This document shows positions 38,363 through 54,991 of a stretch of 64,000 bases of DNA, in pieces (the first letter of the stretch is position 1; each line of letters opens with the position of its first letter). A program made the translations under genes and the position numbers. The notes below the pieces were generated by a model, which did no database searches, was not told where the DNA came from, and saw only the letters and a list, made by a program, of their open reading frames with translations. The stretch is from positions 1 through 64,000 of the forward strand of contig JANQHR010000047.1 in NCBI GenBank assembly GCA_028282585.1, in the 5' to 3' direction. This DNA is from Bacteroidales bacterium. Lineage in GTDB: Bacteria > Bacteroidota > Bacteroidia > Bacteroidales > UBA12077.

Positions 38363-39556
38363 ATGTGCCCGAATTCATGTAAAAGTTGCAGAACAGGTAC
38401 TATTAGAAACAAAAGCAAAGTGACTCTGATTGTTTTGGGGTTGTTGCTTTTGTCATTACTATTAGGAAATTATTTTACATCAGGCGACAATTTCAGTGAA
38501 ATTACACAAAAATTACCTGAATATCGAATAAACCCTTTAAATGAAAATATATTTGAATATTATGTTAACGATTCCTTAATGGGATTTGGGGCAATCGGAC
38601 AAAGCAAAGGCTATGGAGGCCCTTTAACGGTAGCAGTTTTGGCTTCAAGAGACACTTCAATAAGGCAGGTGGTTCCCCTTTTAAATACCGAAACTCCGTC
38701 ATTTTATCAAAAATTTATTAATCAAGAGTTTTTTAAATTTTATAGTGGAGAGTCTTTGTATGTTGAACCCGTTGTAAACGCAGTCAGTGGTGCAACTGTA
38801 ACTTCAAATGCCTATCAATTAGCTGTAAGTAAAGCAATGAACCAGCTTTTAGAAGAGCAATTTCATAAAGAAACATGGCTCATAAAACCAAAGATGAATT
38901 TTAATAAAAATGAATGGATTGTACTGGTTTTTATGCTTTGCTCTTTCTGGCTATTCAGGCTGATTAAAAACAGGAAAACAAAATTATTATGGTATTTAGT
39001 AGTGGTTGTATTAATGGGATTTATATTAAAGATTCAACTTTCATCAACCCACTTAAGCGGTTTAGCAATAAATAAAATGCCAGGTTTATATAATAATTTG
39101 AATATTTGGATATTAGTGATTGGAGTGATTTTGGGTATACTTATTTTGGGCAGGAATTATTACTGTTTTCGTATTTGTCCGTTCCATGCCCTTCAATATT
39201 TATTATCGCAAATCAGCGACATTAACATTAAAACTGGTAAAAAGCTAAACACTGTTTTAAAATATGGATTGGCCACGGTAGTTTTTCTTTACTATACCAT
39301 TACATTTATAACACATGATCCTACCAAAGCTTTGTATGAACCTTTTTCGACCCTTTTTTCATTGCAAGGTACTGGTTTGCAGTGGTTATTTCTAATTCTG
39401 ATTTTAATAGCTGCTTTTCTTATCAAAAATGTATTCTGCAGATTTATGTGCCCTGTTGGATATTCTCTAAGTTACATTCAATCATTGCGATTGATAATAC
39501 TGAACAACATTAAAAAATCAAAAAAAAACGATCATGAAAAAAATAAGATTATATGA
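38363..39556 (+). CDS. rdhC: RdhC/CprC (NosR/NirI-like) FMN-binding membrane protein
   Basis: GYGG, flavinylation-like AVSGAT, multiple TMs and two CX3CP motifs (CFRICP, CRFMCP). Confidence 0.8.
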   Translation: MCPNSCKSCRTGTIRNKSKVTLIVLGLLLLSLLLGNYFTSGDNFSEITQKLPEYRINPLNENIFEYYVNDSLMGFGAIGQSKGYGGPLTVAVLASRDTSIRQVVPLLNTETPSFYQKFINQEFFKFYSGESLYVEPVVNAVSGATVTSNAYQLAVSKAMNQLLEEQFHKETWLIKPKMNFNKNEWIVLVFMLCSFWLFRLIKNRKTKLLWYLVVVVLMGFILKIQLSSTHLSGLAINKMPGLYNNLNIWILVIGVILGILILGRNYYCFRICPFHALQYLLSQISDINIKTGKKLNTVLKYGLATVVFLYYTITFITHDPTKALYEPFSTLFSLQGTGLQWLFLILILIAAFLIKNVFCRFMCPVGYSLSYIQSLRLIILNNIKKSKKNDHEKNKII

Positions 39557-40502
39557 AATAATGAGAAAACCGCCTTTCTTTATGCGTGCTTCACATTATA
39601 TGAGAAAGGATGATAATCCGGTTAAAAGTGGAAATAAATCGCGCAAGGCAGTTATAATTCCTCTGGTACTGATGCAATTTGGAAGTATGAAAGATAAATT
39701 AGCTGCTATGGGTACTACAAAACCAGCATTTATAACTTCAATAAAGGAGATGATAAAAAGCGCTAGAGAATTAAAGAAGAACCCTAAAACCGGGAAAAAG
39801 CAAATCTCGAACAACACATTACAAGAACTTGAAATGTATGCTCGGGAACTAGGAGTTTCGCAAATAGCATACACGAAAGTAAATCCCAATTTTATTTTTG
39901 AGGGTTTTGAAATTCTTTATGAAAATGCCATGATTTTAACTATGGAGATGAAAAGAGATGCTATGAAATCTGCTCCATCAGATTATGCCACAAGCGAGGT
40001 TTGGCGGACATATTCAAATTTAGGACTGATAGTTAATAAACTTGCCGATTTTTTACGCGAACGAGGATATAACTGCCATCCAACTCCTGCGGTTGGAGGT
40101 GATGTATGTACTCCTCCTGTTGCGCAAGATGCAGGCTTTGGTGTTATTGGAAAACATGGTTTACTTATTACACCTGAATTTGGTCCATCACAGCGTATTG
40201 CAGCGGTGTTCATTGATGCTGATAATTTACCTGTAAAATCATTGCAAGAAAATGAACATCTGTGGGTAAAAGAGTTTTGCGAAACCTGTAACAATTGCAT
40301 CAAAAAATGTCCGGGAAGCGCAATTATGGAAGAAACTAAAATTCTTGATGATGGTTACCCAATTTATTTGGAAAGAGAAAAGTGCGCACCTTACTTTTCA
40401 AAAAATTGTTGCACATGCATTGCTACATGTCCATTTATTAATGGTAATTATGGAGAAATAAAGAAAGCATTTGAGAAAAAACAAGAAATTAACATGAACT
40501 AA
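39534..40502 (+). CDS. Reductive dehalogenase-like cobalamin/2x[4Fe-4S] protein without TAT signal
   Basis: AGFGVIGKHGLLITPEFGP; FCETCNNCIKKCP and C..C..C...CP motifs. Confidence 0.8.
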   Translation: MKKIRLYEIMRKPPFFMRASHYMRKDDNPVKSGNKSRKAVIIPLVLMQFGSMKDKLAAMGTTKPAFITSIKEMIKSARELKKNPKTGKKQISNNTLQELEMYARELGVSQIAYTKVNPNFIFEGFEILYENAMILTMEMKRDAMKSAPSDYATSEVWRTYSNLGLIVNKLADFLRERGYNCHPTPAVGGDVCTPPVAQDAGFGVIGKHGLLITPEFGPSQRIAAVFIDADNLPVKSLQENEHLWVKEFCETCNNCIKKCPGSAIMEETKILDDGYPIYLEREKCAPYFSKNCCTCIATCPFINGNYGEIKKAFEKKQEINMN

Positions 40503-40503
40503 A

Positions 40504-40875
40504 ATGGATTGGTATATACCCATTACTTTGTTACCTGGTATAGCATTACTAATATTATCAACTAGCAACTTTATAATTGCATTGAATGCTGAAGTTCAAA
40601 AATTAAAAGCGAATGAAGCATTATTTGGTGAAATAATCGCTTTGAAAATCAAACAACTTAAACGATTAAGTAAAGCTATATCGGGTTTATACCTTAGTGT
40701 ATTATTTTTTACTATATCCGGGCTCTTTGCCTCGATTTCTTATCCGCAAAATATTGTTTTTCTTTTCTTACTTCTTGGTATTGTAATAATGTCTGTTTCG
40801 GTTTTATTATTAATTACGTATTCAATCTTAGCTATAAAGATCAAAACAAAGCACCTTAGAATAAATCCTTTCTAA
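40504..40875 (+). CDS. Small three-TM membrane protein (DUF2721-like)
   Basis: PGIALLILSTSN motif and hydrophobic helices. Confidence 0.65.
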   Translation: MDWYIPITLLPGIALLILSTSNFIIALNAEVQKLKANEALFGEIIALKIKQLKRLSKAISGLYLSVLFFTISGLFASISYPQNIVFLFLLLGIVIMSVSVLLLITYSILAIKIKTKHLRINPF

Positions 40876-40984
40876 ATATTTGTTAAGTTCTTACTATTAC
40901 ATCGAAATATTTAAATCATTCGATTAATATTTAATATATTTGATTGCTTAGCTTTGAATATTTTAACTAACTAATACTTAAACT

Positions 40985-41371
40985 ATGAAAAGAACAATTT
41001 TATTTTTATCAGTAGTAATTGCCATTATATTCTTTAGTTGTAATTCGGTAGGTAAAAAGCATAATGATTTAATTGGGAAATGGCAAAATACCAAAGCAGA
41101 TACAGTTAATTATTTTCTTAAAATTAGCGAAGATTATGCATGGGAATATTATAAAAATGATGAACTGCTTGAAGAAGGAACATTTGAAGTAAATGAAAAC
41201 ATTTTCATTATGAAACATGCAGTTCCGGCTCACAGTCATTCTCATGAAGGTAATGATCGTTCACATGCACATACTGAAGATCATAGGTATGAGTTTAAAT
41301 TAAATGATGATAAATCTGAGCTTAGTTTTATGAGTGAAGGAAAGACTTCAGTATTTAAAAGAATAAAATAA
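40985..41371 (+). CDS. Lipocalin-like lipoprotein with His-rich loop
   Basis: FSC lipobox, LIGKW, HSHSHEGNDRSHAH. Confidence 0.7.
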   Translation: MKRTILFLSVVIAIIFFSCNSVGKKHNDLIGKWQNTKADTVNYFLKISEDYAWEYYKNDELLEEGTFEVNENIFIMKHAVPAHSHSHEGNDRSHAHTEDHRYEFKLNDDKSELSFMSEGKTSVFKRIK

Positions 41372-41434
41372 TTAATAATACCTTGCTTTGTAACATGGTA
41401 AGGTTCTAGATTAGCTAAGTAATAAAATCATTAA

Positions 41435-42058
41435 ATGAAACAACAAATAAGCTCAATTCTGGAGGTTCTTAAACTTGCAGAGAAGCTTAAATTTGAGCTT
41501 CGGCACAGTTTTACATCAAACGGAAGACAGGAAAGTGTAGCTGAACATACTTGGAGAATGTCGTTAATGGCTGTTTTAATTGAACCCTTGTTGAAGAAAA
41601 AAGTGGATATGACCAGGCTTTTAAAAATGATCATTATACATGATTTAGTCGAAGCTGAGGCAAAAGATATTTCTGCCCTGGATGTTTTAAGAAATCCTGA
41701 AATTAAACTGGAAAAAATAGAAAATGAAAAACAGGCCATTGAAAACTTGCGTTCAATGTTACAATCCACAAATGGACAGGAAATCTATGATTTGTTTTAT
41801 GAGTTTGAGAATAAGAAAACATACGAATCCAAAGTAGCAAATGCTTTGGATAAGCTGGAAGTGCAACTTCAACATAATCATGCCGATTTTTCAACCTGGG
41901 AAGAAATTGAGTATGAAATGACCTATATGATGGATAAACATGTAGAGTTTGACTCGACACTATTTGAACTGAAAACTCAAATTGAAAATGAGGCAACAGG
42001 GAAAATGCAATCAAATGGGGTTGATACAGATCTTATTAAGAGAAAAGTCAAAAAATAA
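41435..42058 (+). CDS. HD-domain phosphohydrolase (YfbR/HDDC2-like)
   Basis: ESVAEHTWR, IHDLVE and ALDKLE motifs. Confidence 0.9.
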   Translation: MKQQISSILEVLKLAEKLKFELRHSFTSNGRQESVAEHTWRMSLMAVLIEPLLKKKVDMTRLLKMIIIHDLVEAEAKDISALDVLRNPEIKLEKIENEKQAIENLRSMLQSTNGQEIYDLFYEFENKKTYESKVANALDKLEVQLQHNHADFSTWEEIEYEMTYMMDKHVEFDSTLFELKTQIENEATGKMQSNGVDTDLIKRKVKK

Positions 42059-42458
42059 GTAGAAGCTAATTCTAAAGCATAAGGTAAAAGGGTAGTTTTA
42101 CTGGTTTGACGACAACTAATAAAGTCTAGTAGATGTAATAAAGTCAAAATAAGTAGTAGTCGATTATTATACCATACACTAAAGAAATGCTAAAAATTGT
42201 CTTTTAAATTAACGTTATAATACTAATTACGTAATTTCTTCAAAAGACCAACTAATGCTTTTCTGTATTTTATTGATTTATTTAAAAATTACAGGTTAAA
42301 AATCAGCTTCGATAATTTCGATTTTCTAAGGCTTATTTGGATTTTTTATACACTTATTATTCTTATCCATACGATAAATAATTTAAAATATATGTTAGGA
42401 ATTTTTATATATATTTGCCAACCATTATTGATAAGTTATTTATTAACCTTAAACCCCA

Positions 42459-42746
42459 ATGATTATGAAAATCTTCGAAATTATCGAAAGGCTTGATCTT
42501 ATCTATAAATTAATTAAAGAACAGCAAACTGGAACAGCAAAAGAGTTTGCTCAAAAAGTAGGATTATCGCGAAGTCAGCTTTTTAACTACTTAGATTATT
42601 TAAAATCATTTGACATTGAAATAAAATACGATATTTTTTTAAACTCATATGTAATTGAAAGTAAAAAAGAGTTAAAAATTCAACAGCCCATTAGAGTTTT
42701 AAATGATTACGAACATACTAAAGTCGATGGGGAAGGAATTTTTTAA
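42459..42746 (+). CDS. Small HTH transcriptional regulator
   Basis: TGTAKEFAQKVGLSRSQLFNYLDYLK HTH; TATATTTG promoter at 42410-42417. Confidence 0.82.
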   Translation: MIMKIFEIIERLDLIYKLIKEQQTGTAKEFAQKVGLSRSQLFNYLDYLKSFDIEIKYDIFLNSYVIESKKELKIQQPIRVLNDYEHTKVDGEGIF

Positions 42747-42847
42747 ATGATTTATTTCTAGTGTAAGTAGGGATCTTATTATAAAACATAAAAATTGAAG
42801 GGTCACCCTTTCAATATTTAGGGATTAACAGCCTAATGTTAATTCTT

Positions 42848-43088
42848 ATGAAAGTATTTGAAATTATGATTGATAAAAAGATATAGTTATGCTACTATAG
42901 CAGAAAAAATTGAAAATACAAATGAGTTTGCCAGGAGAGTAGGAATAATATCACGAGGTATTTTTTTTAATCATTTTGATTATTTAAAAGCATACGAAAT
43001 TGATACTAAGTTTGAAAAGAAGAAAAACTTTTTTGTAATTTCAAATTCTGTTGAAATAGGAGTTATAGAATCTATTCAGGTAATTTAA
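42848..43088 (+). pseudogene. Frameshifted paralog of the preceding HTH regulator
   Basis: MKVFEI start (paralog has MKIFEI) is out of frame with NEFARRVG..SR..FNHFDYLKAYEI. Confidence 0.7.
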
Positions 43089-43116
43089 AATGTTAAATTT
43101 TTATAAAAAATTAAAG

Positions 43117-43258
43117 AGTCCAATTTTATTGGACTGGGTAGGTATTAAATTCGTTCACAGAACGGATGAAAACCATAAGGCGCCAAAGGTAAATATATCC
43201 GTTTTGGGCGGATACTGAAAAGCCTTAAAAGAGTAAGTATTAAACTTAAAAATAAAAA
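43117..43258 (+). repeat. Cassette head module, copy 1 (operator palindrome + promoter + leader)
   Basis: AGTCCAATTTTATTGGACT, TAAATTCG -7-like box and 81-nt leader; repeated at 45126 and 45826. Confidence 0.9.
43161..43241 (+). ncRNA. Candidate structured leader RNA, copy 1
   Basis: AACGGAT/ATCCGTT stem, GATACT/AGTATT stem, loop-loop TAAGGC/GCCTTA complementarity. Confidence 0.6.
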
Positions 43259-43426
43259 ATGGAAAATTTAGAAAATTACGGAGTTGAACTTCTTGACAAA
43301 CAAGGAGTAAAAGAAATTAATGGAGGTAAAGCTTGGCCTTGGTACGTTGCACTAGCGATTTGGATATACGATAATCGAAGTGATATTAAAGAGGGGTGGG
43401 ATTCATATGAACCAAAATATAGTTAG
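43259..43426 (+). CDS. Double-glycine leader peptide 1A (bacteriocin-like precursor)
   Basis: MENLENYGVELLDKQGVKEINGG|KAWPWYVALAIWIYDNRSDIKEGWDSYEPKYS (hand-translated, 55 aa). Confidence 0.85.
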   Translation: MENLENYGVELLDKQGVKEINGGKAWPWYVALAIWIYDNRSDIKEGWDSYEPKYS

Positions 43427-43451
43427 AAATTACTAAAGTAGAAAAGTAGTT

Positions 43452-43616
43452 ATGGAAAATCAAGAAATAAAGTTTATGGAGCTTTCCAATTTGGAAAGAG
43501 AGCAAATTAACGGTGGTGGTGATATTGCAAGGGATCTTGGTTACGCTCTTCATTGGGCATGGGATCATTGGGTACATTTCGCTGCTGATATTTTACCAAA
43601 TACTCGTATGCCATAA
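43452..43616 (+). CDS. Double-glycine leader peptide 1B
   Basis: MENQEIKFMELSNLEREQINGG|GDIARDLGYALHWAWDHWVHFAADILPNTRMP (54 aa). Confidence 0.85.
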   Translation: MENQEIKFMELSNLEREQINGGGDIARDLGYALHWAWDHWVHFAADILPNTRMP

Positions 43617-43633
43617 TATTGTAGTTAAGAATA

Positions 43634-43667
43634 ATCATATCACTTTATAACTATAAAGTGATATGAT
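43634..43667 (+). terminator. Hairpin between peptide pair 1 and the membrane gene
   Basis: 16-bp arms ATCATATCACTTTATA / TATAAAGTGATATGAT. Confidence 0.65.
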
Positions 43668-43688
43668 GTTATTTTATAAATAAAAAAT

Positions 43689-44033
43689 ATGAAAGAAAAA
43701 GTTCTAAAAAAAATAATGCCTTATGGCTATAAAGTGATCGAACATGATGATACAGTATTAATAAAGAGCTATTTTGGTAATTTAAAAATAAGTTACAATA
43801 ATAAATCTTATAGTATAACGAAAAAATTTAATTTTAGTAATTATTCTTTATTGGCTTTTTTAATTTTCTTTTTTATAGTCGTTTATGAGGGTAGACATGA
43901 TATAGATGTAATTATATATGTTATAATTTCCTTAGCTATTATTATGCAAATCTTTTATAATTCAATAATGCTTGAAATAAGAAAAAATAAATTACATTCA
44001 GTTTTAGATGAAATTTTTAATTCTTATGAATAA
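43689..44033 (+). CDS. Small membrane protein (candidate immunity)
   Basis: 114 aa, two TMs, follows peptide pair 1. Confidence 0.65.
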   Translation: MKEKVLKKIMPYGYKVIEHDDTVLIKSYFGNLKISYNNKSYSITKKFNFSNYSLLAFLIFFFIVVYEGRHDIDVIIYVIISLAIIMQIFYNSIMLEIRKNKLHSVLDEIFNSYE

Positions 44034-44110
44034 CTATTTCTGGTGAAGGATTTTTAATACTAAGGCGAATTTTTTATTTATTACCAAATAATTGATCAAT
44101 AATTTTTTTT

Positions 44111-44228
44111 ATGATTTTAGAAGATTTAAGTTTTATCAGAACTGAAAAGATCAGACACTATTAATAAAAATGGTGGAGAAAAAGAACGGTTACTTCTGTT
44201 TGGAGCTTTTGGAATTGGTGTTTGGTAG
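44111..44228 (+). pseudogene. Decayed double-glycine peptide gene
   Basis: MILEDLSF, then a frameshift to ELKRSDTINKNGG|EKERLLLFGAFGIGVW*. Confidence 0.5.
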
Positions 44229-44350
44229 GTTATAATAAATATGAACCGGAGCAGACAAATAAAGATCAGTAGTCATTTTGGAGAAAATTAAGTATGGTCA
44301 TTATTAGCTAATATTGACCATACCATAAATTATTAAATTATTAAATTCGA

Positions 44351-44710
44351 ATGGAGAAAATGGATTTAGTTTTAAATAACGGGCTGATTATTATAGGCTT
44401 ATTGTTGTCTTATTCTATTATGTCACAGGTTTTTTTAAAAAAAGAATTAGGAGGTCAAATAAGGACTAAACTAAAAGAAAATATTTTATTAATCGGATTT
44501 ACATTATATATATTCATTGGAATGTTTTTTGGTTTAGGAATCTTATTTAGTATTGGAATTTCAATAACTGTATTTGGTATTTTAAAGCTTATTCCTAATA
44601 AAATATGGGTAGAGCAGTATTTCCAAGGTTTATATATTACATTACAAGTCGCCTATATTTCAACCATAATAGTATTGTTAATATATTTTATTTTTAAGCT
44701 CATAGTTTAA
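44351..44710 (+). CDS. Small membrane protein (candidate immunity)
   Basis: 119 aa, ~4 TMs, preceded by hairpin TATGGTCA..TGACCATA. Confidence 0.7.
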   Translation: MEKMDLVLNNGLIIIGLLLSYSIMSQVFLKKELGGQIRTKLKENILLIGFTLYIFIGMFFGLGILFSIGISITVFGILKLIPNKIWVEQYFQGLYITLQVAYISTIIVLLIYFIFKLIV

Positions 44711-44910
44711 GCTAGTACAGATAAGGTAATTATTACCCATAATTTGACCTGTAATTCATAGCAAGGTTTATGAGGTTAATAACTTTTACTACAAAAAATT
44801 ACTTTATGTTGTTGATATTGAAATATTTAAAAATAAGATGAAAATGTGACTTATGTGTTCGAAGTTGAAAAATGTACCGATTTATATGTATAATTCATAT
44901 AAATAAAACA

Positions 44911-45010
44911 TTATATTCTATAAGAATTAAGCAAAACACAATTGAATATTCTTTACCAATATAATACAACCAAAAATCATGTATTATTTATTATAGTTGC
45001 TATAGCATTT
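44911..45010 (+). pseudogene. Decayed 5' fragment of hlyD, scar 1
   Basis: NTIEYSL../NTTKNHVLFIIVAIAF resembles HlyD STVEYHLTQNSTKSQVIYITVILAF. Confidence 0.55.
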
Positions 45011-45125
45011 GTTTGTATTTAAGTTTCCGAAAGAATAGTGAATACTTTTAAGATTATTTAAAACATTTATTAGTCATAAGCATATTAATAATTCAAAATG
45101 GTTAAATCATCATGCAAAATGGAAG

Positions 45126-45268
45126 AGTCCAATTTTATTGGACAGGGTGCGTATTAAATTCGTTCACAGAACGGATAAAAATCATAAGGCGCCATAGGTA
45201 AATAAATCCTTTTTAGTCGGATACTGAAAAGCCTTAAAAGAGTAAGTATTGAATTTAAAAATGATAAA
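45126..45268 (+). repeat. Cassette head module, copy 2 (leader RNA 45170-45250)
   Basis: Same palindrome and promoter; leader 74/81 identical to copy 1. Confidence 0.9.
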
Positions 45269-45421
45269 ATGGAAACAAAGGTTAAAGAACTTTCAGAACA
45301 TGAAATTATAAATATTAATGGTGGTGATGGTTTTGCTGAAGATGTTGGAGAAATTATAGGTTTTAGTATTAAATTTAATTATAATGTTTTGAAATGGGTT
45401 TATGACTCTATAATAGGATAA
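45269..45421 (+). CDS. Double-glycine leader peptide 2
   Basis: METKVKELSEHEIININGG|DGFAEDVGEIIGFSIKFNYNVLKWVYDSIIG (50 aa). Confidence 0.85.
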   Translation: METKVKELSEHEIININGGDGFAEDVGEIIGFSIKFNYNVLKWVYDSIIG

Positions 45422-45444
45422 AAGCACTTAATGATTTTTTACGT

Positions 45445-45487
45445 AATACAAGCTTAGGTTTTATTACTAAAAATCTAGGTTTGTATT
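45445..45487 (+). terminator. Hairpin after peptide 2
   Basis: AATACAAGCTTAGGTTTT / AAAATCTAGGTTTGTATT imperfect inverted repeat followed by a T-run. Confidence 0.6.
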
Positions 45488-45516
45488 TTTATAAACTTTT
45501 AATAGATAAAAAAACT

Positions 45517-45633
45517 ATGAAGATTTTTAAGCGGAAAAGAGATTTTATAGTCTTGGTTATAAGCATTATTGTTTCTTTAATAATATTTAAAAATTGGGAG
45601 TTAATAAAGGAATTCTTGAGTTCGTTATTTTAA
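45517..45633 (+). CDS. 38-aa single-TM protein (candidate immunity)
   Basis: MKIFKRKRDFIVLVISIIVSLIIFKNWELIKEFLSSLF; same position in its unit as the other membrane genes. Confidence 0.6.
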   Translation: MKIFKRKRDFIVLVISIIVSLIIFKNWELIKEFLSSLF

Positions 45634-45660
45634 AGATTTCTTAACGGGTAGGATTAGGTT

Positions 45661-45762
45661 ATGGTAGAAAAATACCCGGCAAATATTGTTGGAAGTACTG
45701 CCACATATCATTTATTTAAAAACTCAATCAAAAGACAGGTAATATATAATGCAGTGGTGTAA
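45661..45762 (+). pseudogene. Truncated 5' fragment of hlyD, scar 2
   Basis: MVEKYPANIVGSTATYHLFKNSIKRQVIYNAVV* versus HlyD MNKKVYPTDIVESTVEYHLTQNSTKSQVIYITVI. Confidence 0.75.
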
Positions 45763-45825
45763 AATTTATTATTACTTTGGTTAAGATGCTACTCGTTTTC
45801 TGCATTTTTTAAAAAAAAGGGTGAA

Positions 45826-45967
45826 AGTCCAATTTTATTGGACAGGGTGCTTATTAATTTCGTTCACGAACGGATAAAAACCATAAGGCGCCAAAGGTAA
45901 ATATATCCGTTTTGGGCGGATACTGAAAAGCCTTAAAAGAGTAGGTATTAAACTTAAAAATTATAAA
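45826..45967 (+). repeat. Cassette head module, copy 3 (leader RNA 45869-45949)
   Basis: Same palindrome and promoter; leader 79/81 identical to copy 1. Confidence 0.9.
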
Positions 45968-46141
45968 ATGGAAAATTTAGAAAATTATGGAGTAGTTTCT
46001 TTGGACACGAAAGAAATGCAAGAAACTGAAGGAGGCAACCCTTGGGCAATATTTGCTGCTGGACTTGTTTTAGGTGCTATCATTAGTGATTGGGCAGGCT
46101 TTAAAAATGGAATAATGGATGGAATTGCTGATAATCAATAA
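45968..46141 (+). CDS. Double-glycine leader peptide 3A
   Basis: MENLENYGVVSLDTKEMQETEGG|NPWAIFAAGLVLGAIISDWAGFKNGIMDGIADNQ (57 aa). Confidence 0.87.
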   Translation: MENLENYGVVSLDTKEMQETEGGNPWAIFAAGLVLGAIISDWAGFKNGIMDGIADNQ

Positions 46142-46152
46142 GAATTAATAAT

Positions 46153-46308
46153 ATGGAAAATTTAGAATTATTAAGAATAGAAGAATTAAGTAATATTAAT
46201 GGAGGTGAACCAACAAGAGATACATCGTTTGGATATGATGTAGGTTATGCTATTGGAACAATGCTTACTGCCAAATTTTGGGAAGATTGGTCAATTAGTA
46301 TACTTTAA
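46153..46308 (+). CDS. Double-glycine leader peptide 3B
   Basis: MENLELLRIEELSNINGG|EPTRDTSFGYDVGYAIGTMLTAKFWEDWSISIL (51 aa). Confidence 0.87.
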   Translation: MENLELLRIEELSNINGGEPTRDTSFGYDVGYAIGTMLTAKFWEDWSISIL

Positions 46309-46325
46309 ATAAATTTGTATTACTA

Positions 46326-46363
46326 TTATGTTCCGTAATTTGTTTTATAATTGCGGAACATAA
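46326..46363 (+). terminator. Hairpin after peptide pair 3
   Basis: TTATGTTCCGTAATT / AATTGCGGAACATAA. Confidence 0.65.
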
Positions 46364-46374
46364 ATTACTAATTA

Positions 46375-46593
46375 ATGAAATCAAATATGAAATCAATTCT
46401 ATTAAAATACATAGTTATAATTATAGCAATGTATTTCTTTCATTTAATTATTGCTAATTGGGCTTTTATAAAATCTTTGATTGAAGGCTTTCATCAAAAA
46501 AAGTTTATTTTTCTAGACCTTAAGTTGTTTATTGTAAATTTTTTTGTTGTATTAGCCTTTCTTGTTCTTGACTTATATAAAAAGATCTTTTAA
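46375..46593 (+). CDS. Small two-TM protein (candidate immunity)
   Basis: 72-aa hydrophobic ORF following peptide pair 3. Confidence 0.65.
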   Translation: MKSNMKSILLKYIVIIIAMYFFHLIIANWAFIKSLIEGFHQKKFIFLDLKLFIVNFFVVLAFLVLDLYKKIF

Positions 46594-46612
46594 TATAAAT
46601 AGGGGAAATTGT

Positions 46613-46714
46613 TTATATCTTGCGGCTATTAATGAAAGCACGGCTAAATACCATTTAGCAAAAAACTCAACAAAAAGTCAAATTATTTAAAAAGCCGTAA
46701 TTCTGCCTTTTATT
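46613..46714 (+). pseudogene. Decayed 5' fragment of hlyD, scar 3
   Basis: LYLAAINESTAKYHLAKNSTKSQII*KAVILPFI versus HlyD VYPTDIVESTVEYHLTQNSTKSQVIYITVILAFI. Confidence 0.78.
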
Positions 46715-46993
46715 TATTATAATTACGTTAGTTAACTTGATCAATTTGGTAAGGCGTTTGAAAAATTATCTAAATGAACAGCCTTAATCTGTTATCTGTT
46801 CATTGAATTTTCCAAAAAATATAACAAATTACTATTATGATCCTAATATTATGGAAATGGTAAAATTGTATAAAAGTTTATGTATTACTTTAAAAAAGTA
46901 GATATAAAAGATGAAATTTTAAAATTAAGCCTGTTGAAATTAGGGCAAATTTAGATGATAATGAAGAGTTTTATGAATATTTAACTTATCCAC

Positions 46994-48151
46994 ATGAATA
47001 AAAAAGTATATCCAACAGATATAGTTGAAAGCACAGTCGAATACCATCTAACGCAAAACTCGACCAAAAGCCAGGTAATATATATTACAGTAATTTTAGC
47101 ATTTATTGTTGCCATAGCCTTGTTACCATTTGTTTATATAAATATAACAGTACAAGGAGGTGGTATTGTAAGACCGGTTACAGAAAAAACAGAGGTAAAA
47201 GCATTGGTTTCAGGTAGAGTTGCAAATGTTTTTATAGAGAATGAGCAACAAGTTTTAGAGGGAGATACTGTGTTAATTGTTCAAAGCGATAAATTAAGTA
47301 GTCAGCATAATTTACTTCAAAAACAAATAAAAGAAAAAAGGGATTTTATAAGCGATTTAGAAAAATTGGTAATTCTTAAAGCTTCAACCTTTAATTCAGA
47401 TAAATACCAGGGAGAGTATTTTAAATTCAAAGAACAGATTACACAAGTAAAAAATAAACGAAAAAAAGCAAAAAGAGAACTTGACAGAAACAAAGTTTTA
47501 CTTGAACAAGAGTTTATAAGCAAAAAAGAATACGACGATTTAAATTATCAATACCTATTAGCAGACAATGAATACAATTTGACCGTTACCAATCAGTTAA
47601 GTGTTTGGAAGTCAGATTTAAGTCGTTGCAGGTCAACTATGGAAGACCTAAAATCACAGTTAGAACAACTACAAAAAGAACAAGAGTTTTATGTAATAAA
47701 AGCACCGGTAACCGGTACCATTGAGCAATTTGCAGGGATTTATGAAGGAACCAATATTCAGTCGGGTCAAATTATTGCAGGAATAAGCCCGGAAACCGAT
47801 TTAATTGCAGAAGTTTACATATCACCTAAAGATATCGGTTACCTTAAAGAAGGAACTCCCTTAAATATTCAGGTTGATGCATTTAATTACAACGACTGGG
47901 GAATGATCAAAGGTGAGATTATTAATATTTCAGATGACTATATTTTGCTAGAAAATCAACCGGTGTTTAAAATCCGTTGTAAAATGGAGCAAAATCAACT
48001 TAGCCTGAGAAATGGGATAACAGGAGACGTAAAAAAAGGCATGACTATTAGAGCAAGGTTTTTGTTGGCAAAAAGGTCCTTATACCAGCTATTGTTTGAT
48101 AATGTAAATGACTGGTTAAATCCTGCCCAAAACAACAATTCCAAGAAGTAA
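46994..48151 (+). CDS. HlyD family secretion adaptor of the peptide exporter
   Basis: N-terminal TM, lipoyl-like halves, coiled coil, IKAPVTG and VDAFNYNDWG motifs. Confidence 0.92.
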   Translation: MNKKVYPTDIVESTVEYHLTQNSTKSQVIYITVILAFIVAIALLPFVYINITVQGGGIVRPVTEKTEVKALVSGRVANVFIENEQQVLEGDTVLIVQSDKLSSQHNLLQKQIKEKRDFISDLEKLVILKASTFNSDKYQGEYFKFKEQITQVKNKRKKAKRELDRNKVLLEQEFISKKEYDDLNYQYLLADNEYNLTVTNQLSVWKSDLSRCRSTMEDLKSQLEQLQKEQEFYVIKAPVTGTIEQFAGIYEGTNIQSGQIIAGISPETDLIAEVYISPKDIGYLKEGTPLNIQVDAFNYNDWGMIKGEIINISDDYILLENQPVFKIRCKMEQNQLSLRNGITGDVKKGMTIRARFLLAKRSLYQLLFDNVNDWLNPAQNNNSKK

Positions 48152-48166
48152 TCAACAGATATCAGA

Positions 48167-50347
48167 ATGAAAAAATCAGTAAGAATCAAACAGCATGATA
48201 TTACCGATTGTGGGGCGGCTTGCCTGGCATCCATAGCAGCACATCATGGATTAAAATTACCTATATCAAAAATACGGCAATATGCTTCAACCGATCAAAA
48301 AGGAACCAATGTTTTGGGAGTAATAGAAGCAGCAGAAAAGTTGGGATTTACTGCAAAAGGTGTAAAAGGTCCTTTTGAAAGTTTGTTTAAGATTCCTAAA
48401 CCAACGATCGCACATATCATTGTAAAAGAAAGATTGCACCATTATGTAGTTATATATAAGACAACAAAAAAATATATTATTATTATGGATCCGGGCACAG
48501 GCAGGATTCATAAAAAAACGCATGAGGAATTTAAAAAGGAATGGACAGGTATTTTAATTCTCATTATGCCTGATAAGTCTTTTAAAAAAGGAAATGAAAA
48601 AACTTCCATAACAAAACGTTTCTTTCAATTAATACGCCCGCACAGAACTATCATGATCCAGGCACTTTTTGGAGCCATTATATACAGTATTTTGGGTTTA
48701 TCTACTTCAATCTATGTTGAAAAAATAGTTGATTATGTTTTGGTAGATGGTAATTTAAACTTGCTTAACCTTCTAAGCACAATTATGATTGCTTTATTAC
48801 TCTTGCGAGTTTATATCGGAGTGATGAAAAGTATTTTTGCCTTGAAAACGGGACAAAAGATGGATGCCGCTTTAATATTGGGTTATTACAAACACCTGAT
48901 GAGACTTCCTCAACGTTTTTTTGATACTATGCGAACAGGGGAAGTCATTTCAAGAATAAATGATGCAGTTAAAATACGAACATTTATTAACAATGTATCG
49001 CTCGATTTGGCTGTTAATGTCATGATCGTATTTTTCACCTTTTCGTTAATGTTTATTTACTCCTGGAAGTTAGCTTTAATTGTTTTGGCGGCTATTCCGT
49101 TATATATTGTAATTTATCTTATTTATAATAAGTTAAATAAGAAATACCTGCGAAGAAATATGGAAAATGCTGCAGAACTAGAATCACAACTGGTTGAGTC
49201 CATCAATGCATCATCTACCATTAAAAGATTTGGATTGGAGAAATTTGCCAATTTAAAAACAGAGACTCGTTTTATAAAGTTATTAAGTTCCACTTATCAT
49301 TCTGTAAAAAATTCCATCTTTTCAAGTAGTTCGACTACTTTTATAGCAGGTGCAGTCACAATAGCCGTTCTTTGGATAGGTTCTAGGAGTGTAGTAAGTC
49401 AGGAAATGACTCCGGGTGAATTAATGTCTTTTTATGCTTTAATAGGTTATATTCTAAGTCCACTTGCAGGTTTAATTGATACTAACAAGGTGGTTCAGGA
49501 TGCTTTGATTGCAGCAGACCGCTTATTTCAGATCATGGATTTGGAGATGGAAGAAACAGAGAAAGAAAAGATGATATTGACACCTGATATGATAGGAGAT
49601 ATTAATTTCAAAAATGTATCCTTTAGGTATGGCTCCAGAGTTACCGTTTTTGAAAACCTGGATTTAACGATTCAAAAGAATAAAATGACAGCCATAGTCG
49701 GTGAAAGTGGTTCGGGTAAAACAACGCTTATATCACTGTTACAAAACATTTATCCTTTGCAATCCGGGAATATTGAATTCGGAAAATATAACCTTAACTA
49801 CATAAGTAATGAAAGCCTTAGGGAAATGGTAAGTGTTGTTCCTCAAAAGATTGATTTATTTGCAGGCAGTATACTTGAGAATATAGCCATTGGAGATTTA
49901 GAGCCTGATATGAAAAGAACAATAGATATTTGCCAATCATTAGGAATTATGAAGTTTATCGAGAAGCTACCAGGTGGTTTTCAAACCTATGTTGGAGAGA
50001 ATGGAGTTTCACTTTCAGGAGGTGAAAAGCAAAGAATTGCTATTGCTCGGGCTTTATATAAGAATCCGGAAGTATTAATATTAGATGAGGCTACATCCTC
50101 ACTTGACTCTGCTTCAGAACAATATGTTCAACAAGCCATACAATATTTAAAAAATCAAAATAAGACCATAATCGTCATTGCTCATAGATTAAGTACCGTA
50201 ATGAATGCAGATGAAATCTTTGTTCTAAATGAAGGTAAGGTAGTTGAAAATGGAGATCATCAGGAACTAATTGATGGAAGAGGATTTTATTATAATTTAT
50301 GGAAACAACAATTTCCAATGTTAAAAGAGTTAGAATTAATGCATTGA
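48167..50347 (+). CDS. Peptidase-containing ABC transporter (C39 PCAT)
   Basis: QHDITDCGAACL and HYVV C39 motifs, TMD, GESGSGKT, LSGGEKQR. Confidence 0.96.
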   Translation: MKKSVRIKQHDITDCGAACLASIAAHHGLKLPISKIRQYASTDQKGTNVLGVIEAAEKLGFTAKGVKGPFESLFKIPKPTIAHIIVKERLHHYVVIYKTTKKYIIIMDPGTGRIHKKTHEEFKKEWTGILILIMPDKSFKKGNEKTSITKRFFQLIRPHRTIMIQALFGAIIYSILGLSTSIYVEKIVDYVLVDGNLNLLNLLSTIMIALLLLRVYIGVMKSIFALKTGQKMDAALILGYYKHLMRLPQRFFDTMRTGEVISRINDAVKIRTFINNVSLDLAVNVMIVFFTFSLMFIYSWKLALIVLAAIPLYIVIYLIYNKLNKKYLRRNMENAAELESQLVESINASSTIKRFGLEKFANLKTETRFIKLLSSTYHSVKNSIFSSSSTTFIAGAVTIAVLWIGSRSVVSQEMTPGELMSFYALIGYILSPLAGLIDTNKVVQDALIAADRLFQIMDLEMEETEKEKMILTPDMIGDINFKNVSFRYGSRVTVFENLDLTIQKNKMTAIVGESGSGKTTLISLLQNIYPLQSGNIEFGKYNLNYISNESLREMVSVVPQKIDLFAGSILENIAIGDLEPDMKRTIDICQSLGIMKFIEKLPGGFQTYVGENGVSLSGGEKQRIAIARALYKNPEVLILDEATSSLDSASEQYVQQAIQYLKNQNKTIIVIAHRLSTVMNADEIFVLNEGKVVENGDHQELIDGRGFYYNLWKQQFPMLKELELMH

Positions 50348-50455
50348 CCATAAGGGTTTAGTTTTAAAAGCCACAGAACTCATCTTATTGCTGGTATTGA
50401 TAAGGTTTATCGAGTTTTACAGGGAAGAAGATGAGCAAAACTATTTGAGATTTGT

Positions 50456-50839
50456 ATGGATAAGAAGCAAAAAACATATTTGATATTATCGATTTTTATT
50501 GTATTTACGGCACTTTTATTGACCTATTTGTATAGGCCATTTATTGTATAACAATAATATTAATGATTATGGATTTGCTGATGCAATTGGAAGTTTAGCA
50601 TCGGTTATTGCAGTATGTTTTTTCCTTTGGTCTTTTAAAAATTACCCTAACAGTGAAAAAAACAAACATATTATATTGGCTATGCTCGTTTATACAGTTA
50701 TTTGGGAGCGTTAGGCTTAATAGGTGTTCATGGTACTTTTGATTGGAAGGATATAATTGCAGTATTTATAAGTGGTGGTTTGGCATATTTATTAAAATAA
50801 ATTATAGAAAAAAGAGTTTCACATATTACTAAACTATAA
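50456..50839 (+). pseudogene. Degraded small membrane protein gene
   Basis: MDKKQKTYLILS...YRPFI / NDYGFADAIGS...IWE / GVHGTFDWKDIIA segments lie in different frames; internal stop. Confidence 0.6.
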
Positions 50840-50933
50840 TGTTCAAGAATTAGACGTAACAATATTTGCATTAATTCATCTATGCAAATTATATAACCAT
50901 AGTTCAATGAGCATACGGTACATTATAAATTAT

Positions 50934-51188
50934 ATGACAAACAAAAAAGAATTCGACCTGGTACAAATATTTGCCGGAACAACTGTTCAAGCACAAATGG
51001 TGCAAAGCATACTAAAAAGTGAAGGAATTGAGGCATTCCTAAAGGACGAATATATGGGAACTTTGTTTCCTTTTCATACTGCGCCCGGAGCGGCAGGATC
51101 AGTAAAGGTCGTTGTCCCAAACCAGGATTACGAAGCTGCCAAAAAAATTGTAGACAACTATTACAATAATATAAATTCAGATCAATAG
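50934..51188 (+). CDS. DUF2007 / putative signal-transducing protein
   Basis: AQMVQSILKSEGIEAFLKDE...VKVVV...D...AK pattern. Confidence 0.8.
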   Translation: MTNKKEFDLVQIFAGTTVQAQMVQSILKSEGIEAFLKDEYMGTLFPFHTAPGAAGSVKVVVPNQDYEAAKKIVDNYYNNINSDQ

Positions 51189-51191
51189 CTG

Positions 51192-51509
51192 ATGGATAAG
51201 AAAGTACTTTATAAGGAATTATTAAATAAATGTCCGAGGTTTGAACTTAAAGGCAAAAATATGCTTTATACTTCTGCAAACGGGCATATGTTTTCCACGT
51301 TAAATAAAGAAGGAGAATTAGGAATCAGATTCTCTAGAGAAGTTCAGGAAAAATATATAAAAGAATTGGGAACTGATTATTTTAAATCTTATGGAGCCAC
51401 CATGAAGGGTTATGTGTTAATACCTGAAATCCTCTGGAAGGATCTTGATAAACTGGCAAAATATCTGAATGAAAGCTGCGATTATGTAATGTCGCTCGAT
51501 CCAAAATAA
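51192..51509 (+). CDS. Hypothetical protein (TfoX N-terminal-like)
   Basis: NGHMF...GATMKGYVLIP pattern. Confidence 0.65.
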   Translation: MDKKVLYKELLNKCPRFELKGKNMLYTSANGHMFSTLNKEGELGIRFSREVQEKYIKELGTDYFKSYGATMKGYVLIPEILWKDLDKLAKYLNESCDYVMSLDPK

Positions 51510-51511
51510 AA

Positions 51512-51672
51512 GGAGGTGTCCAAAAATTCTTAGTGTTCTTTGTGCCTGCTTTGCGAAACTATGTGGTATAATTATAAAAGGCTGTTACACAGAGAACCAC
51601 AGAGAAGACACAAAGTTACTCAAAGTAAAAAATACGAACAAGATTTAACTATTGTACTTTTTGGACACCCCC
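51512..51672. mobile_element. MITE-like non-autonomous element, 161 bp
   Basis: Terminal inverted repeats GGAGGTGTCCAAAAA / TTTTTGGACACCCCC; second copy at 1-98; no ORF. Confidence 0.75.
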
Positions 51673-51715
51673 TTATGATTATGTATAATGGATATACCAT
51701 TTTTCTTTTGGATAT

Positions 51716-53890
<2,175 letters not shown>

Positions 53891-54126
53891 TTAAGTTAAT
53901 GAATACCCTAAATGTTGGATTTAAATTATTTCAATATAATAAGCAGAGCGAAGTAATATACGAAAATATGAGCATTGTTTCAAGCTTTGGAATACCTAAT
54001 TGTAATCTCATATTTTAGTTAACTTGTTAGATATCAATTTTATTAATAAATGTAGAACTTCTATAAATATGTAAAAATATTCCTCAATAAACTTTAAGGG
54101 ATTTTTTCTTATATTTTGTCTTAAAA

Positions 54127-54657
54127 TTAATTGGTTTTGTTTTCAAAACTTTTTTTGTACTCATCAAAAGATACTGTTTTAAAGGCGTCTTCGGCAAAAA
54201 ACATTAGAACCGGTTCCAAAGCGTCAGCTGTGTAATATCCTGGAACTGCTGTCAGTAGCTGATTGTTTTCATTTAAATATGCCATGGAAGGGTAAGACAT
54301 TTTACCTTGTAATAAAGCAACTGCTAACTGATGGGGTGACCTTCTTCCATTTCCATCGTTTACAAAAAGTTGCCCTGCAAAGTTAATCGTGTCTTTTGAT
54401 TCTGCATCAAACTTAACTGCATAATATTCTTCGTTCAGAATCTTAGCAATAGTTGGATGGGTAAATGTAGTTGCTTCCATTTTTTTGCACCACCCACACC
54501 AATCGGTATAAACATCAATAAAAATTTTTCTTTGTTCTTTCTTATTTAGCTCGATCGCCTCTTCAATACTGTACCATTTTACCTCGTTTTCCTGCCCACT
54601 AACATTTAAACACGTAATAAGGAATATAGCGATATAGCTTATCGTCCATTTTTTCAT
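54127..54657 (-). CDS. Thioredoxin-fold exported protein (DUF255-like)
   Basis: Signal peptide; YTDWCGWCKKM. Confidence 0.88.
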   Translation of the reverse strand: MKKWTISYIAIFLITCLNVSGQENEVKWYSIEEAIELNKKEQRKIFIDVYTDWCGWCKKMEATTFTHPTIAKILNEEYYAVKFDAESKDTINFAGQLFVNDGNGRRSPHQLAVALLQGKMSYPSMAYLNENNQLLTAVPGYYTADALEPVLMFFAEDAFKTVSFDEYKKSFENKTN

Positions 54658-54991
54658 ATCTGGTTCGGTTTTATTTAGAAAAATAAGTTATGTAACTATA
54701 TACATACTTATTTAGTAAACACAAATTTAAACTTTTTTGTTGCATAAATCTAATATTTTTGCAATCCATAAAGGGTTATTATATGACGAAAAACTTCTAA
54801 AAAAGTTATATCAAGGCATACATTTTAATGTTAAGATTTGTTAAAAACCGAATTTGGTAAAGTTGTACTTTAGTTAAAAAGTTATTTTTTCTAAATTTGA
54901 GCTTGCTAAATTTAAATTTGAGAATTAAACAATTCTTTTAAATCTTAGTCTGATTAAATAATTAAAAACAATAAAACGGAGGATTAATTAA

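Follow-up and report, generated by a model that had tools for sequence, protein, structure and literature searches.

We describe a tandem array of small secreted-peptide genes in a Bacteroidales genome of 4.9 Mb and 173 contigs (G000), which occupies 42.4-50.4 kb on the plus strand of a 64,000-nt stretch of one contig (C125; hereafter the window, whose numbering is used throughout). Judging from the sequence, it is probably a chromosomal locus for unmodified peptides with double-glycine (GG) leaders, most likely two-peptide bacteriocins of a class IIb or class II microcin-like type accompanied by membrane immunity proteins, in a polymorphic region that would have been rebuilt by recombination at its flanks. 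A gene for a 95-aa helix-turn-helix (HTH) protein and a frameshifted second copy of it are followed by three units, an intact hlyD and an intact gene for a peptidase-containing ATP-binding cassette transporter (PCAT). Each unit runs from a head of about 180 nt through one or two open reading frames (ORFs) with GG leaders and an inverted repeat to one or two small membrane ORFs and a 5' fragment of hlyD. Upstream of HlyD and PCAT this amounts to three heads, five GG peptide genes and three hlyD 5' remnants (Table 1). A first-pass annotation of the window had proposed three units of this common layout, with an intact exporter behind them and an HTH gene plus a dead duplicate in front, and all of these parts could be located.

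Exporter, peptide precursors and membrane proteins

The exporter genes carry the expected domains. PCAT matches Peptidase_C39 (E 2e-37), ABC_membrane (E 5e-48) and ABC_tran (E 6e-30), and residues Gln9, Cys15, His92 and Asp108 of its C39 domain are invariant across nine aligned homologues, while HlyD passes two family models (HlyD_3 with 60.1 bits at a cut-off of 22.2, HlyD_D23 with 36.6 bits at a cut-off of 30) and is 73-79% identical to its orthologues. The layout supports the idea, already put forward in the first-pass annotation, that one exporter is common to all units, and we infer that the one downstream PCAT would cleave every precursor behind GG and, with HlyD as its partner, export the product.

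Each of the five small ORFs encodes a GG between residues 18 and 23 with the usual hydrophobic and acidic pattern before it, and in each of them a leader of about 15-25 aa ends in GG and has hydrophobic residues at positions -4 and -7. They fall into two leader families, type 1 (pepA1 and pepC1, which we call NYGV-type) and type 2 (pepA2, pepB and pepC2). A profile built from nine type-1 leaders matched 1569 protein clusters (50% identity) at E<=0.001, and 122 of the 149 top matches that were inspected combine the NYGV-type signature and GG with hypervariable, mostly hydrophobic cores. An exhaustive profile search was needed for this, as a word-based protein search with pepC1 returned only pepC1 itself. 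Literature searches found nothing relevant on NYGV-type leader strings in main texts, such sequences being given mostly in figures and supplements. Type-2 peptides share an acidic-x-Gly motif at the start of the core, which recurs in the related loci L021, L073 and L081 and in genome G427, and the type-2 peptide of G427 shares 58% identity with pepB over 31 aa; contrary to what had been supposed, the cores are therefore not all unrelated between units. A type-1 gene followed by a type-2 gene, with one or more membrane genes behind them, is the order in units 1 and 3, L021, L073 and G427, and this recurrence suggests that the peptides may act in pairs as two-peptide bacteriocins. A G-x-x-x-G stretch is visible in one of the five peptides, pepC1.

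By the Kyte-Doolittle scale all four membrane ORFs have hydrophobic segments, one to four in each. If the mature cores kill, these proteins would be expected to protect the producer, and the hairpin in front of them would lower read-through from the peptide genes into the immunity gene. The corresponding neighbour in L021 matches the Rce1-like/CPBP family (Pfam, E 8e-6) and has tblastn homologues in L065, L073 and L077; CPBP proteins are counted among the immunity genes of blp loci in the accessible text of PMC4860687.

The tandem arrangement itself is robust. Independently made contigs of the likely source run cover 42400-43198, 43212-45247, 45221-45906 and 45914-47100, breaking only in a stretch shared by the heads that contains the Rfam motif DUF805b, and each unit body is joined in them to the 5' part of the next head. 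One apparent joint in that run, from 43852 to 46895, had a shorter side of 21 nt and was taken as spurious. Among listed sequencing runs, this DNA is contained in those of the likely source sample only, with no RNA run among them.

Variation among relatives and the history of the array

HlyD-based scans gave nine genome loci and 25 metagenome loci, which form a family that combines a small HTH gene, hlyD, PCAT and NYGV-type peptides in varying gene order (in L025, for example, hlyD directly follows the HTH gene). Within the genus an orthologue with 73-78% identity was found in three of 36 other genomes. G427 has a single cassette with no hlyD remnant: an HTH gene, a head, a type-1 and a type-2 peptide, membrane ORFs of 47 aa and 272 aa (the latter CPBP-like by eye), hlyD and PCAT. 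Palindrome and DUF805b are both present in its head, which matches the window heads over about 170 nt at 76-77% identity. G016, also free of hlyD remnants, has an HTH gene, one type-1 peptide, a 410-aa gene, a 189-aa gene, hlyD and PCAT. The cores of both genomes differ from those of the window. Since G427 and G016 share the anchors and carry other content, the region between HTH and hlyD-PCAT is polymorphic, in line with the first-pass annotation, and neither of these close relatives has the cassette content of the window.

We propose that the bacteriocin/immunity region was rebuilt by recombination in which the conserved head plus leader and the hlyD 5' end would have served as flanks. Where an event added a unit rather than replacing one, the older unit would be followed by a cut-off hlyD 5' end and the newer one preceded by an HTH 3' relic. 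Locus L028 has the pattern to be expected from recombination at conserved flanks with different cargo: its two units are 99% identical over a 235-nt head plus leader, their cargo differs, the peptides diverge exactly after GG, and a 56-nt hlyD 5' piece shares 98% identity with the resident gene. In a screen of hlyD N-termini against 27 related loci with an intact hlyD start, 15 of which extend at least 1.9 kb upstream, extra hlyD 5' fragments were present in five of the 15 (L028, L071, L074 with two, L075 and L082; L075 and L082 look like the same organism). Repeated heads occur in relatives as well, two each in L028 and L071 and three to four in L075, and L073 has five leader copies.

In the window, each hlyD remnant outscores all 300 shuffles of its own region, and the earlier observation of a decayed hlyD 5' end in every unit can be upheld, most weakly for remnant 1, which is frameshifted and much fainter than the others (score 36 against 33 for the best shuffle; two colinear matches, each with E 0.02). 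The best identity of the remnants to any hlyD allele rises towards the exporter, from about 68% through 77% to 82%, and units further from the exporter seem to be older. Remnant 3 is 82% identical to the hlyD of G016 and 78% to that of G019, another genome of the genus, as against 68% to the resident gene. Over the remnant stretch, the identity between the resident hlyD and intact orthologues is 77-80%. The 189-aa gene is intact before hlyD in L021 and G016 (homologues at L021 238-807 and L152 11080-11652), and a relic of its end stands before the window's hlyD. A resident hlyD-PCAT that carries the relic of a different upstream gene suggests exporter replacement; the last event would have brought the present hlyD-PCAT together with this relic of its former upstream gene. 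The first-pass annotation had whole cassettes added between two conserved anchors. The anchors did not stay intact, however: each event carried along or cut a piece of one, as is seen in the HTH 3' relic of each head, the hlyD 5' relic of each unit, the dead HTH copy and the upstream-gene relic. Nor is the head a dedicated cassette boundary, being the normal regulatory region of the family that is repeated in relatives too.

The stretch from remnant to next palindrome differs in sequence and in length (113 nt as against 53 nt), which speaks against a fixed recombination site. No recombinase was seen among the scanned ORFs of at least 100 aa in 39534-56449, which gave an HD domain, DUF2007 and TfoX_N, the neighbouring ORFs having been scanned in part. 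An integron- or transposon-like mechanism was considered and, as far as the scanned ORFs and the variable junctions go, appears less likely.

Several observations weigh against the picture drawn so far. Unit 2 contains a type-2 peptide only, and curated bacteriocin models stay below their cut-offs (PF10439 with 21.5 against 27.1 bits, TIGR01847 with 13.4 against 15.7 and TIGR03949 with 14.1 against 21.5). No Pfam or NCBIfam family was found for the membrane ORFs, so that it is their position that gives them the immunity label, and the ORF list of the locus includes no TolC-like outer-membrane partner. As to the history, no remnant was found in ten of the 15 related loci whose upstream sequence reaches 1.9 kb, the identity gradient of the remnants rests on about 100 nt each, and the order of the units rests on the assembler's handling of repeats of 35-67 nt. 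Finally, all three remnants end at hlyD nt 114-117; a single founding junction that was later amplified accounts for this shared end-point at least as well as three separate additions do.

That end-point favours an origin of the array in place, with no need for foreign cassettes to be brought in step by step. A single junction, between hlyD nt ~115 and sequence lying before a head, would have been multiplied by unequal crossing-over at the heads, with later divergence or conversion of the cargo. Head identity, at 90-93%, is sufficient for homologous exchange. We nevertheless regard such an origin as rather unlikely. It would not lead one to expect remnant 3 to be closer to the hlyD of G016 and G019 than to the resident gene, nor cores and membrane genes that cannot be aligned between units while the heads are 90% alike, nor the unlike stretches between remnant and palindrome, and foreign flanking DNA was brought in at least once, as the relic of the 189-aa gene shows. 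Rebuilding by recombination at the flanks remains our preferred explanation.

A side observation concerns L028 7104-7307, an open ORF of 67 codons that runs in frame from the first 22 hlyD codons into a GG motif and an HTH-type tail, a chimera produced where two units were joined.

Table 1. Coordinates of the array in the window, of HTH homologues in related loci and of further DUF805b copies in genome G000.
Feature	Coordinates	Strand	Description
HTH1	42459..42746	+	95-aa winged-helix regulator of a small HTH_11-like family
HTH2	42845..43088	+	frameshifted, decayed regulator copy (pseudogene) abutting head 1; tblastn against HTH1
Head 1	43087..43266	+	palindrome 43118-43134, -7-like box 43146-43153, block 43172-43187, DUF805b 43205-43239
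pepA1	43259..43426	+	type-1 GG leader, 55 aa, 'NYGV' leader, GG at residues 22-23; among top matches of leader profile (P0135)
pepA2	43452..43616	+	type-2 GG leader, 54 aa; weak NCBIfam bacteriocin matches
Hairpin, unit 1	43634..43667	+	perfect 16-nt arms, T-rich tail, between peptides and membrane gene
Membrane ORF, unit 1	43689..44033	+	114 aa, 2 hydrophobic segments, candidate immunity gene; no Pfam/NCBIfam family
Second membrane ORF, unit 1	44351..44710	+	119 aa, 3-4 hydrophobic segments, candidate immunity gene
hlyD 5' remnant 1	44899..45013	+	hlyD nt 1-114, frameshifted, ~65% nt identity, most decayed of the three
Head 2	45096..45275	+	palindrome 45127-45143, DUF805b match 45214-45248 below gathering score
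pepB	45269..45421	+	type-2 GG leader, 50 aa; no type-1 partner in unit 2
Hairpin, unit 2	45445..45487	+	imperfect, 18-nt arms, 83% complementary
Membrane ORF, unit 2	45517..45633	+	38 aa (50 aa if started at TTG 45481), 1 hydrophobic segment, candidate immunity gene
hlyD 5' remnant 2	45661..45773	+	open 33-codon ORF, 71% nt identity to resident hlyD, E 4.7e-6
Head 3	45795..45974	+	palindrome 45827-45843, DUF805b 45913-45947; 1-nt deletion breaks relic frame
pepC1	45968..46141	+	type-1 GG leader, 57 aa; G-x-x-x-G stretch in core; Pfam Bacteriocin_IIc E 0.022
pepC2	46153..46308	+	type-2 GG leader, 51 aa; Pfam Bacteriocin_IIc 21.5 bits, cut-off 27.1
Hairpin, unit 3	46326..46363	+	15-nt arms, 93% complementary
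Membrane ORF, unit 3	46375..46593	+	72 aa, 2 hydrophobic segments, candidate immunity gene
hlyD 5' remnant 3	46604..46714	+	1 in-frame stop, E 1e-6; 68% identity to resident hlyD
Relic of 189-aa gene	46933..46998	+	last 22 codons; tblastn 68% over 22 aa, E 1e-5
HlyD	46994..48151	+	intact membrane fusion protein, 385 aa; Pfam HlyD_3 E 4e-16
PCAT	48167..50347	+	intact, 726 aa; C39 peptidase, ABC membrane and ABC ATPase domains
HTH homologue, L025	9617-9934		
HTH homologue, L024	7645-7962		
HTH homologue, L073	4898-5263		
HTH homologue, L077	13276-13590		
HTH homologue, L021	4183-4533		
HTH homologue, L152	8906-9244		
HTH homologue, L151	6072-6365	-	reverse-complement coordinates
DUF805b copy, G000	C149:7449-7484		
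DUF805b copy, G000	C123:1809-1841		
DUF805b copy, G000	C65:25151-25182	-	
DUF805b copy, G000	C130:236-270		

Directly 3' of PCAT, at 50456-50800, lie three short overlapping hydrophobic ORFs in shifting frames, which look like one membrane gene with frameshifts or with sequencing errors.

The repeated heads and the DUF805b motif

Over the 142-bp stretch 43117-43258 the three heads are 90-93% identical to each other (129/143, 133/143 and 130/143), as against 65-71% identity of the hlyD remnants to hlyD. Over the last ~81 nt the counts are 72/82 and 78/82; the high identity reported earlier for these leaders is confirmed, at slightly lower values than the 74/81 and 79/81 then given. A 17-nt palindrome occurs in the window in three exact copies, all in heads. 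With up to three mismatches it gives six strand-hits, compared with a mean of 0.43 over 100 shuffles, none of which reached six, and the 4.9-Mb genome holds one further near-match (C4:19584). The palindrome would be the operator to which the small winged-helix regulator binds. It is followed by a box, TAAATTCG, which is one base off TAnnTTTG, presumably the Bacteroides -7 promoter consensus, and from which the units may be expressed; the homologous head of G427 has TAGCTTTG, an exact TAnnTTTG. Behind palindrome and box, about 105 nt end in DUF805b, roughly 20 nt before the start codon.

Palindrome, DUF805b and a 16-nt block with a central GGCGCC (43172-43187, 45182-45197 and 45880-45895) are the parts kept between the window heads and the head of G427; the block is the same in heads 1 and 3 and G427, and head 2 differs at two positions. 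Head 3 is conserved past its 1-nt deletion, which points to a constraint on DNA or RNA and not on protein. The 5' part of the head is a relic of the 3' end of the regulator gene, where the HTH tail is encoded: the ORF 43090-43218 in head 1 resembles the C-terminal tails of homologous regulators, the palindrome of G016 sits inside the tail-coding region of the regulator, and the head palindrome of L073 coincides with sequence that reads like a regulator tail.

As an observation on its own, base pairing between the 16-nt block and the 3' arm of the DUF805b stem can occur within the predicted fold, which would allow alternative structures.

Searches with the head at DNA level (163-180 nt) among 40 relatives matched, outside the genome itself, either the DUF805b part or, weakly and in L013, L014 and L015 (E 3.6e-4 to 4.7e-4), the first 65 nt, and among 400 genomes of the order most matches were again to the DUF805b part. 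L034 and L035 gave weak palindrome-only matches, and no peptide genes were seen there; several other matches in the order proved on reading to be A/T-rich chance matches and were discarded. The exact palindrome followed by GGGT had no match in metagenome contigs. A sigma-70 promoter scan was uninformative (49 sites, 51.3 expected).

What the first-pass annotation had called a structured leader is a known motif, the 35-nt Rfam family DUF805b (RF02914). It consists of a short hairpin, a conserved loop and a 3' tail just upstream of the start codon. Heads 3 and 1 pass its gathering score of 35.6 bits with 42.9 and 38.5 bits, and head 2 fails with 26.2 bits. DUF805b was reportedly first described upstream of genes for DUF805 membrane proteins. 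The genome as a whole has seven matches, five of them above threshold, and six of the seven lie about 20 nt before GG-leader ORFs (the three heads and the copies on C149, C123 and C65), the remaining copy preceding a lipoprotein-like ORF. In the genus a match is present in 27 of 37 genomes. When the first downstream ORF was judged by eye at 29 genus loci (L085-L113), the 19 above-threshold loci had eight clear GG peptides, three ambiguous cases and eight signal-peptide-like N-termini, and the ten below-threshold loci no GG peptide. Ten further stretches from five genus genomes, searched with a regular expression of our own, held 11 motif copies, some at sites that overlap the 29 loci; clear GG-leader peptides lie behind eight of these copies (the site of one peptide being a degenerate G-x-G) and signal-peptide-like proteins behind three. 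Across the rest of the order the downstream genes are mixed; the motif could be recognised in about 15 of 28 loci, three of these before GG peptides. Within the genus DUF805b thus seems to be tied to exported products.

In related HlyD/PCAT loci, DUF805b was found neither in L021, L024, L025 and L026 (E<=1) nor in L022, L023, L027-L029 and L060-L084 (gathering score), and the head version with this motif is accordingly confined, among the loci found through HlyD, to G000 and G427. A literature search turned up no discussion of DUF805b (its sole match was an RNA-alignment methods paper) and nothing in print on a link to GG peptides; the term is absent from PMC5737381 as far as its main text goes.

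One may ask if DUF805b is instead a DNA-level promoter for an alternative sigma factor. It keeps a fixed distance to the start codon (17-25 nt at most of the 29 loci), has two conserved blocks about 16 nt apart and stands mostly before genes for exported products, all of which would fit this, as would consensus folding of the three heads, which gave no covariation (none of 35 predicted pairs changed on both sides). Across genomes, however, the short stem does covary (GGC/GCC, AGC/GCT, GGT/ACC, GGA/TCC, CCC/GGG), the family is curated as RNA, and by our own reading a standard promoter-like box stands 30-45 nt upstream of the motif in several loci of the order, so that we judge a promoter role unlikely and favour a structured RNA leader. 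Single-sequence folding of the head gave a z-score of -2.2.

Three side observations concern other DUF805b sites. At L114 and L115 (G427:C70:38094-55448, minus strand) at least five copies lie within 17 kb; behind the four that were recovered by pattern lie Cys-rich peptides, in one case with a degenerate G-x-G, and one signal-peptide-like protein, and the stretch may be a multi-precursor cluster for modified peptides. C149 (7449-17163) carries a second full-length PCAT (33% identical) and a HlyD homologue, with DUF805b and a Cys-rich 64-aa GG peptide about 6 kb upstream of them. A second copy of the HTH family with two stops (C65:25334-25579, minus strand) lies directly upstream of DUF805b and a 68-aa GG-leader ORF; contig C65 gave no tblastn match to the PCAT of the window.

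A regulator family with its own double-glycine motif

HTH1 matches Pfam HTH_11 below the cut-off (E 7e-4) and is 59% and 57% identical to the regulators of G427 and G016. HTH2 has 37% protein identity to HTH1 over 67 aa, with the N-terminal eight codons in another frame and a stop at 42881-42883. The family comprises 271 homologues at E<=0.001. Of 120 homologues listed, 83 show GG at the same conserved position, some 85-90 residues from the start, and 13 have AG, GA or GS there; nine end before this position, four have no such pair and 11 could not be anchored. The residues before GG follow the canonical GG-leader pattern (Glu at -8 in 57, Leu at -7 in 40 and Ile at -4 in 49 of the 83), and the tails behind it have a median length of 24 aa. 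HTH1 ends in G-E-G plus two residues where the regulators of G427 and G016 have G-G plus 7 or 22 residues, and has probably lost its GG site.

In a set of 20 homologue loci, each from a different genome of the class, seven regulators are tailed, six of them with a PCAT within about 9 kb and the seventh at a contig end, whereas two of 13 untailed regulators are near a PCAT (Fisher's exact p = 0.004, with related genomes that are not independent). In the AlphaFold model of the L025 regulator a confident winged helix extends to about residue 70, and the GG region and tail have a predicted local distance difference test (pLDDT) score below 50; Foldseek returned nothing for the HTH model at E<=0.001, the best matches being BirA/NiaR-type winged helices at E 0.1. 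When the C39 domain and the GG-tailed HTH protein of L025 were modelled as a complex, the score was 0.01 against a mark of 0.32, which, with controls not run, is evidence neither way. A literature search found no description of regulators with a GG-leader motif.

These patterns allow a tentative proposal, which we consider possible though doubtful: the regulator may itself be a substrate of C39, PCAT cutting at its GG and either exporting the tail as a signal or switching the regulator. Exporter activity would in this way be coupled to transcription from the palindromic operator, which in some loci is situated within the DNA that encodes the tail and is duplicated along with each head. HTH1 would be an uncoupled variant, and DUF805b would serve in Bacteroidales as a leader element of genes whose peptide or protein products are exported.

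Bacteriocins or signals

Instead of killing, the five peptides might act as signalling peptides (pheromones) or in another non-killing role, with the membrane proteins as receptors or unrelated. PCATs also export quorum signals, as stated in the accessible texts of PMC7018657 and PMC4860687, the curated bacteriocin models were not reached, and the linked regulator family with its own GG motif in relatives hints at peptide-based regulation. On the other hand, signals usually co-vary with one receptor, whereas here, to go by the top matches among the 1569 clusters, hypervariable hydrophobic cores stand behind a near-invariant leader, and a membrane gene of its own for each peptide set is the pattern of toxin/immunity diversification. 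The CPBP-type neighbour in L021, from a family of blp immunity genes, fits the same pattern, and the ORF list of the locus contains no sensor kinase. A signalling role is therefore, in our estimation, quite improbable, and we keep to bacteriocins with candidate immunity proteins.

Still less likely is that units 1 and 2 are dead relics and only the exporter-proximal unit functions, for although their hlyD remnants are the most decayed, the DUF805b of head 2 falls below the gathering score and unit 1 has a dead copy of the regulator in front of it, none of the five peptide ORFs or of the membrane ORFs is interrupted, the GG leaders are intact, and heads 1 and 2 keep the exact palindrome at 90% identity where the neutral remnants have gone down to 65-71%.

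Comparison with known systems

The general layout is known from the pneumococcal blp locus, in which variable GG bacteriocin genes and membrane or CAAX-protease immunity genes lie beside one PCAT, leaders are conserved, cores vary, and recombination has been proposed as the driver of diversity (PMC4860687, accessible text). The blp locus is Gram-positive and controlled by a peptide pheromone and a two-component system, unlike the present array with its winged-helix regulator of about 95 aa, HlyD partner, palindrome/DUF805b heads and border remnants. A pheromone, histidine kinase or response regulator of the blp type was not found: the ORFs of at least 100 aa in 42300-50400 are the membrane ORFs, HlyD and PCAT, and the small HTH pair are the only regulator-like genes. 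The first-pass annotation knew of no description of this architecture; that may hold for the truncated flanking-gene remnants at unit borders, which the accessible text of PMC4860687 does not mention for blp, and not for the general layout.

Export of unmodified GG peptides by a PCAT with a HlyD-family partner in a Gram-negative organism is shared with class II microcins and colicin V, whose systems comprise a GG precursor, an immunity gene, a PCAT, a membrane fusion protein and TolC. Class II microcin-type GG peptides are reported to be abundant in Bacteroidaceae (PMC12219008, PMC12648112); the accessible parts of these papers catalogue single peptides and do not describe tandem units with repeated heads or anchor remnants. 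The NYGV-type leader family is distinct from class II microcins and lies below the curated models. Bacteroidetocins are Bacteroidales peptide toxins with a GG leader that depend on a PCAT, and their region, going by the accessible part of PMC6671954, consists of a transmembrane protein, the peptide, a thiol oxidoreductase and the PCAT, with a four-Cys mature peptide, a leader of 15-16 aa and no immunity gene found. The window has HlyD and leaders of 18-23 aa, and as none of the five mature cores contains Cys and no oxidoreductase is adjacent, its peptides are not bacteroidetocins.

A further likeness is with the orphan modules of contact-dependent inhibition (CDI) and Rhs systems, where older modules stand beside the active gene, each with a fragment of the conserved gene part that is the recombination flank. 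In those systems the conserved fragment comes from the toxin gene and the variable part is a C-terminal domain; here the fragments come from transporter and regulator genes and the cargo consists of whole small genes.

Loci that combine GG-peptide bacteriocin and immunity genes with a PCAT and a membrane fusion protein are thus a known kind, to which we assign this one. New are a Bacteroidales system of this kind with a small HTH regulator, the repeated palindrome/DUF805b head, the very large NYGV-leader family and the truncated pieces of both flanking genes that recur where units adjoin. It offers a worked example, from an uncultured marine-associated member of the Bacteroidales, of how a Gram-negative bacteriocin arsenal may diversify: head plus leader and the hlyD 5' end appear to serve as recombination flanks, and leftover fragments would record additions and an apparent exporter swap. 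It also places a very large uncurated family of GG peptides of Bacteroidota (the 1569 clusters) in a defined genetic system and gives the orphan motif DUF805b a concrete and testable association. If regulators with a GG motif are indeed cleaved by PCAT, this would be a new wiring of a transcription factor to a transporter.

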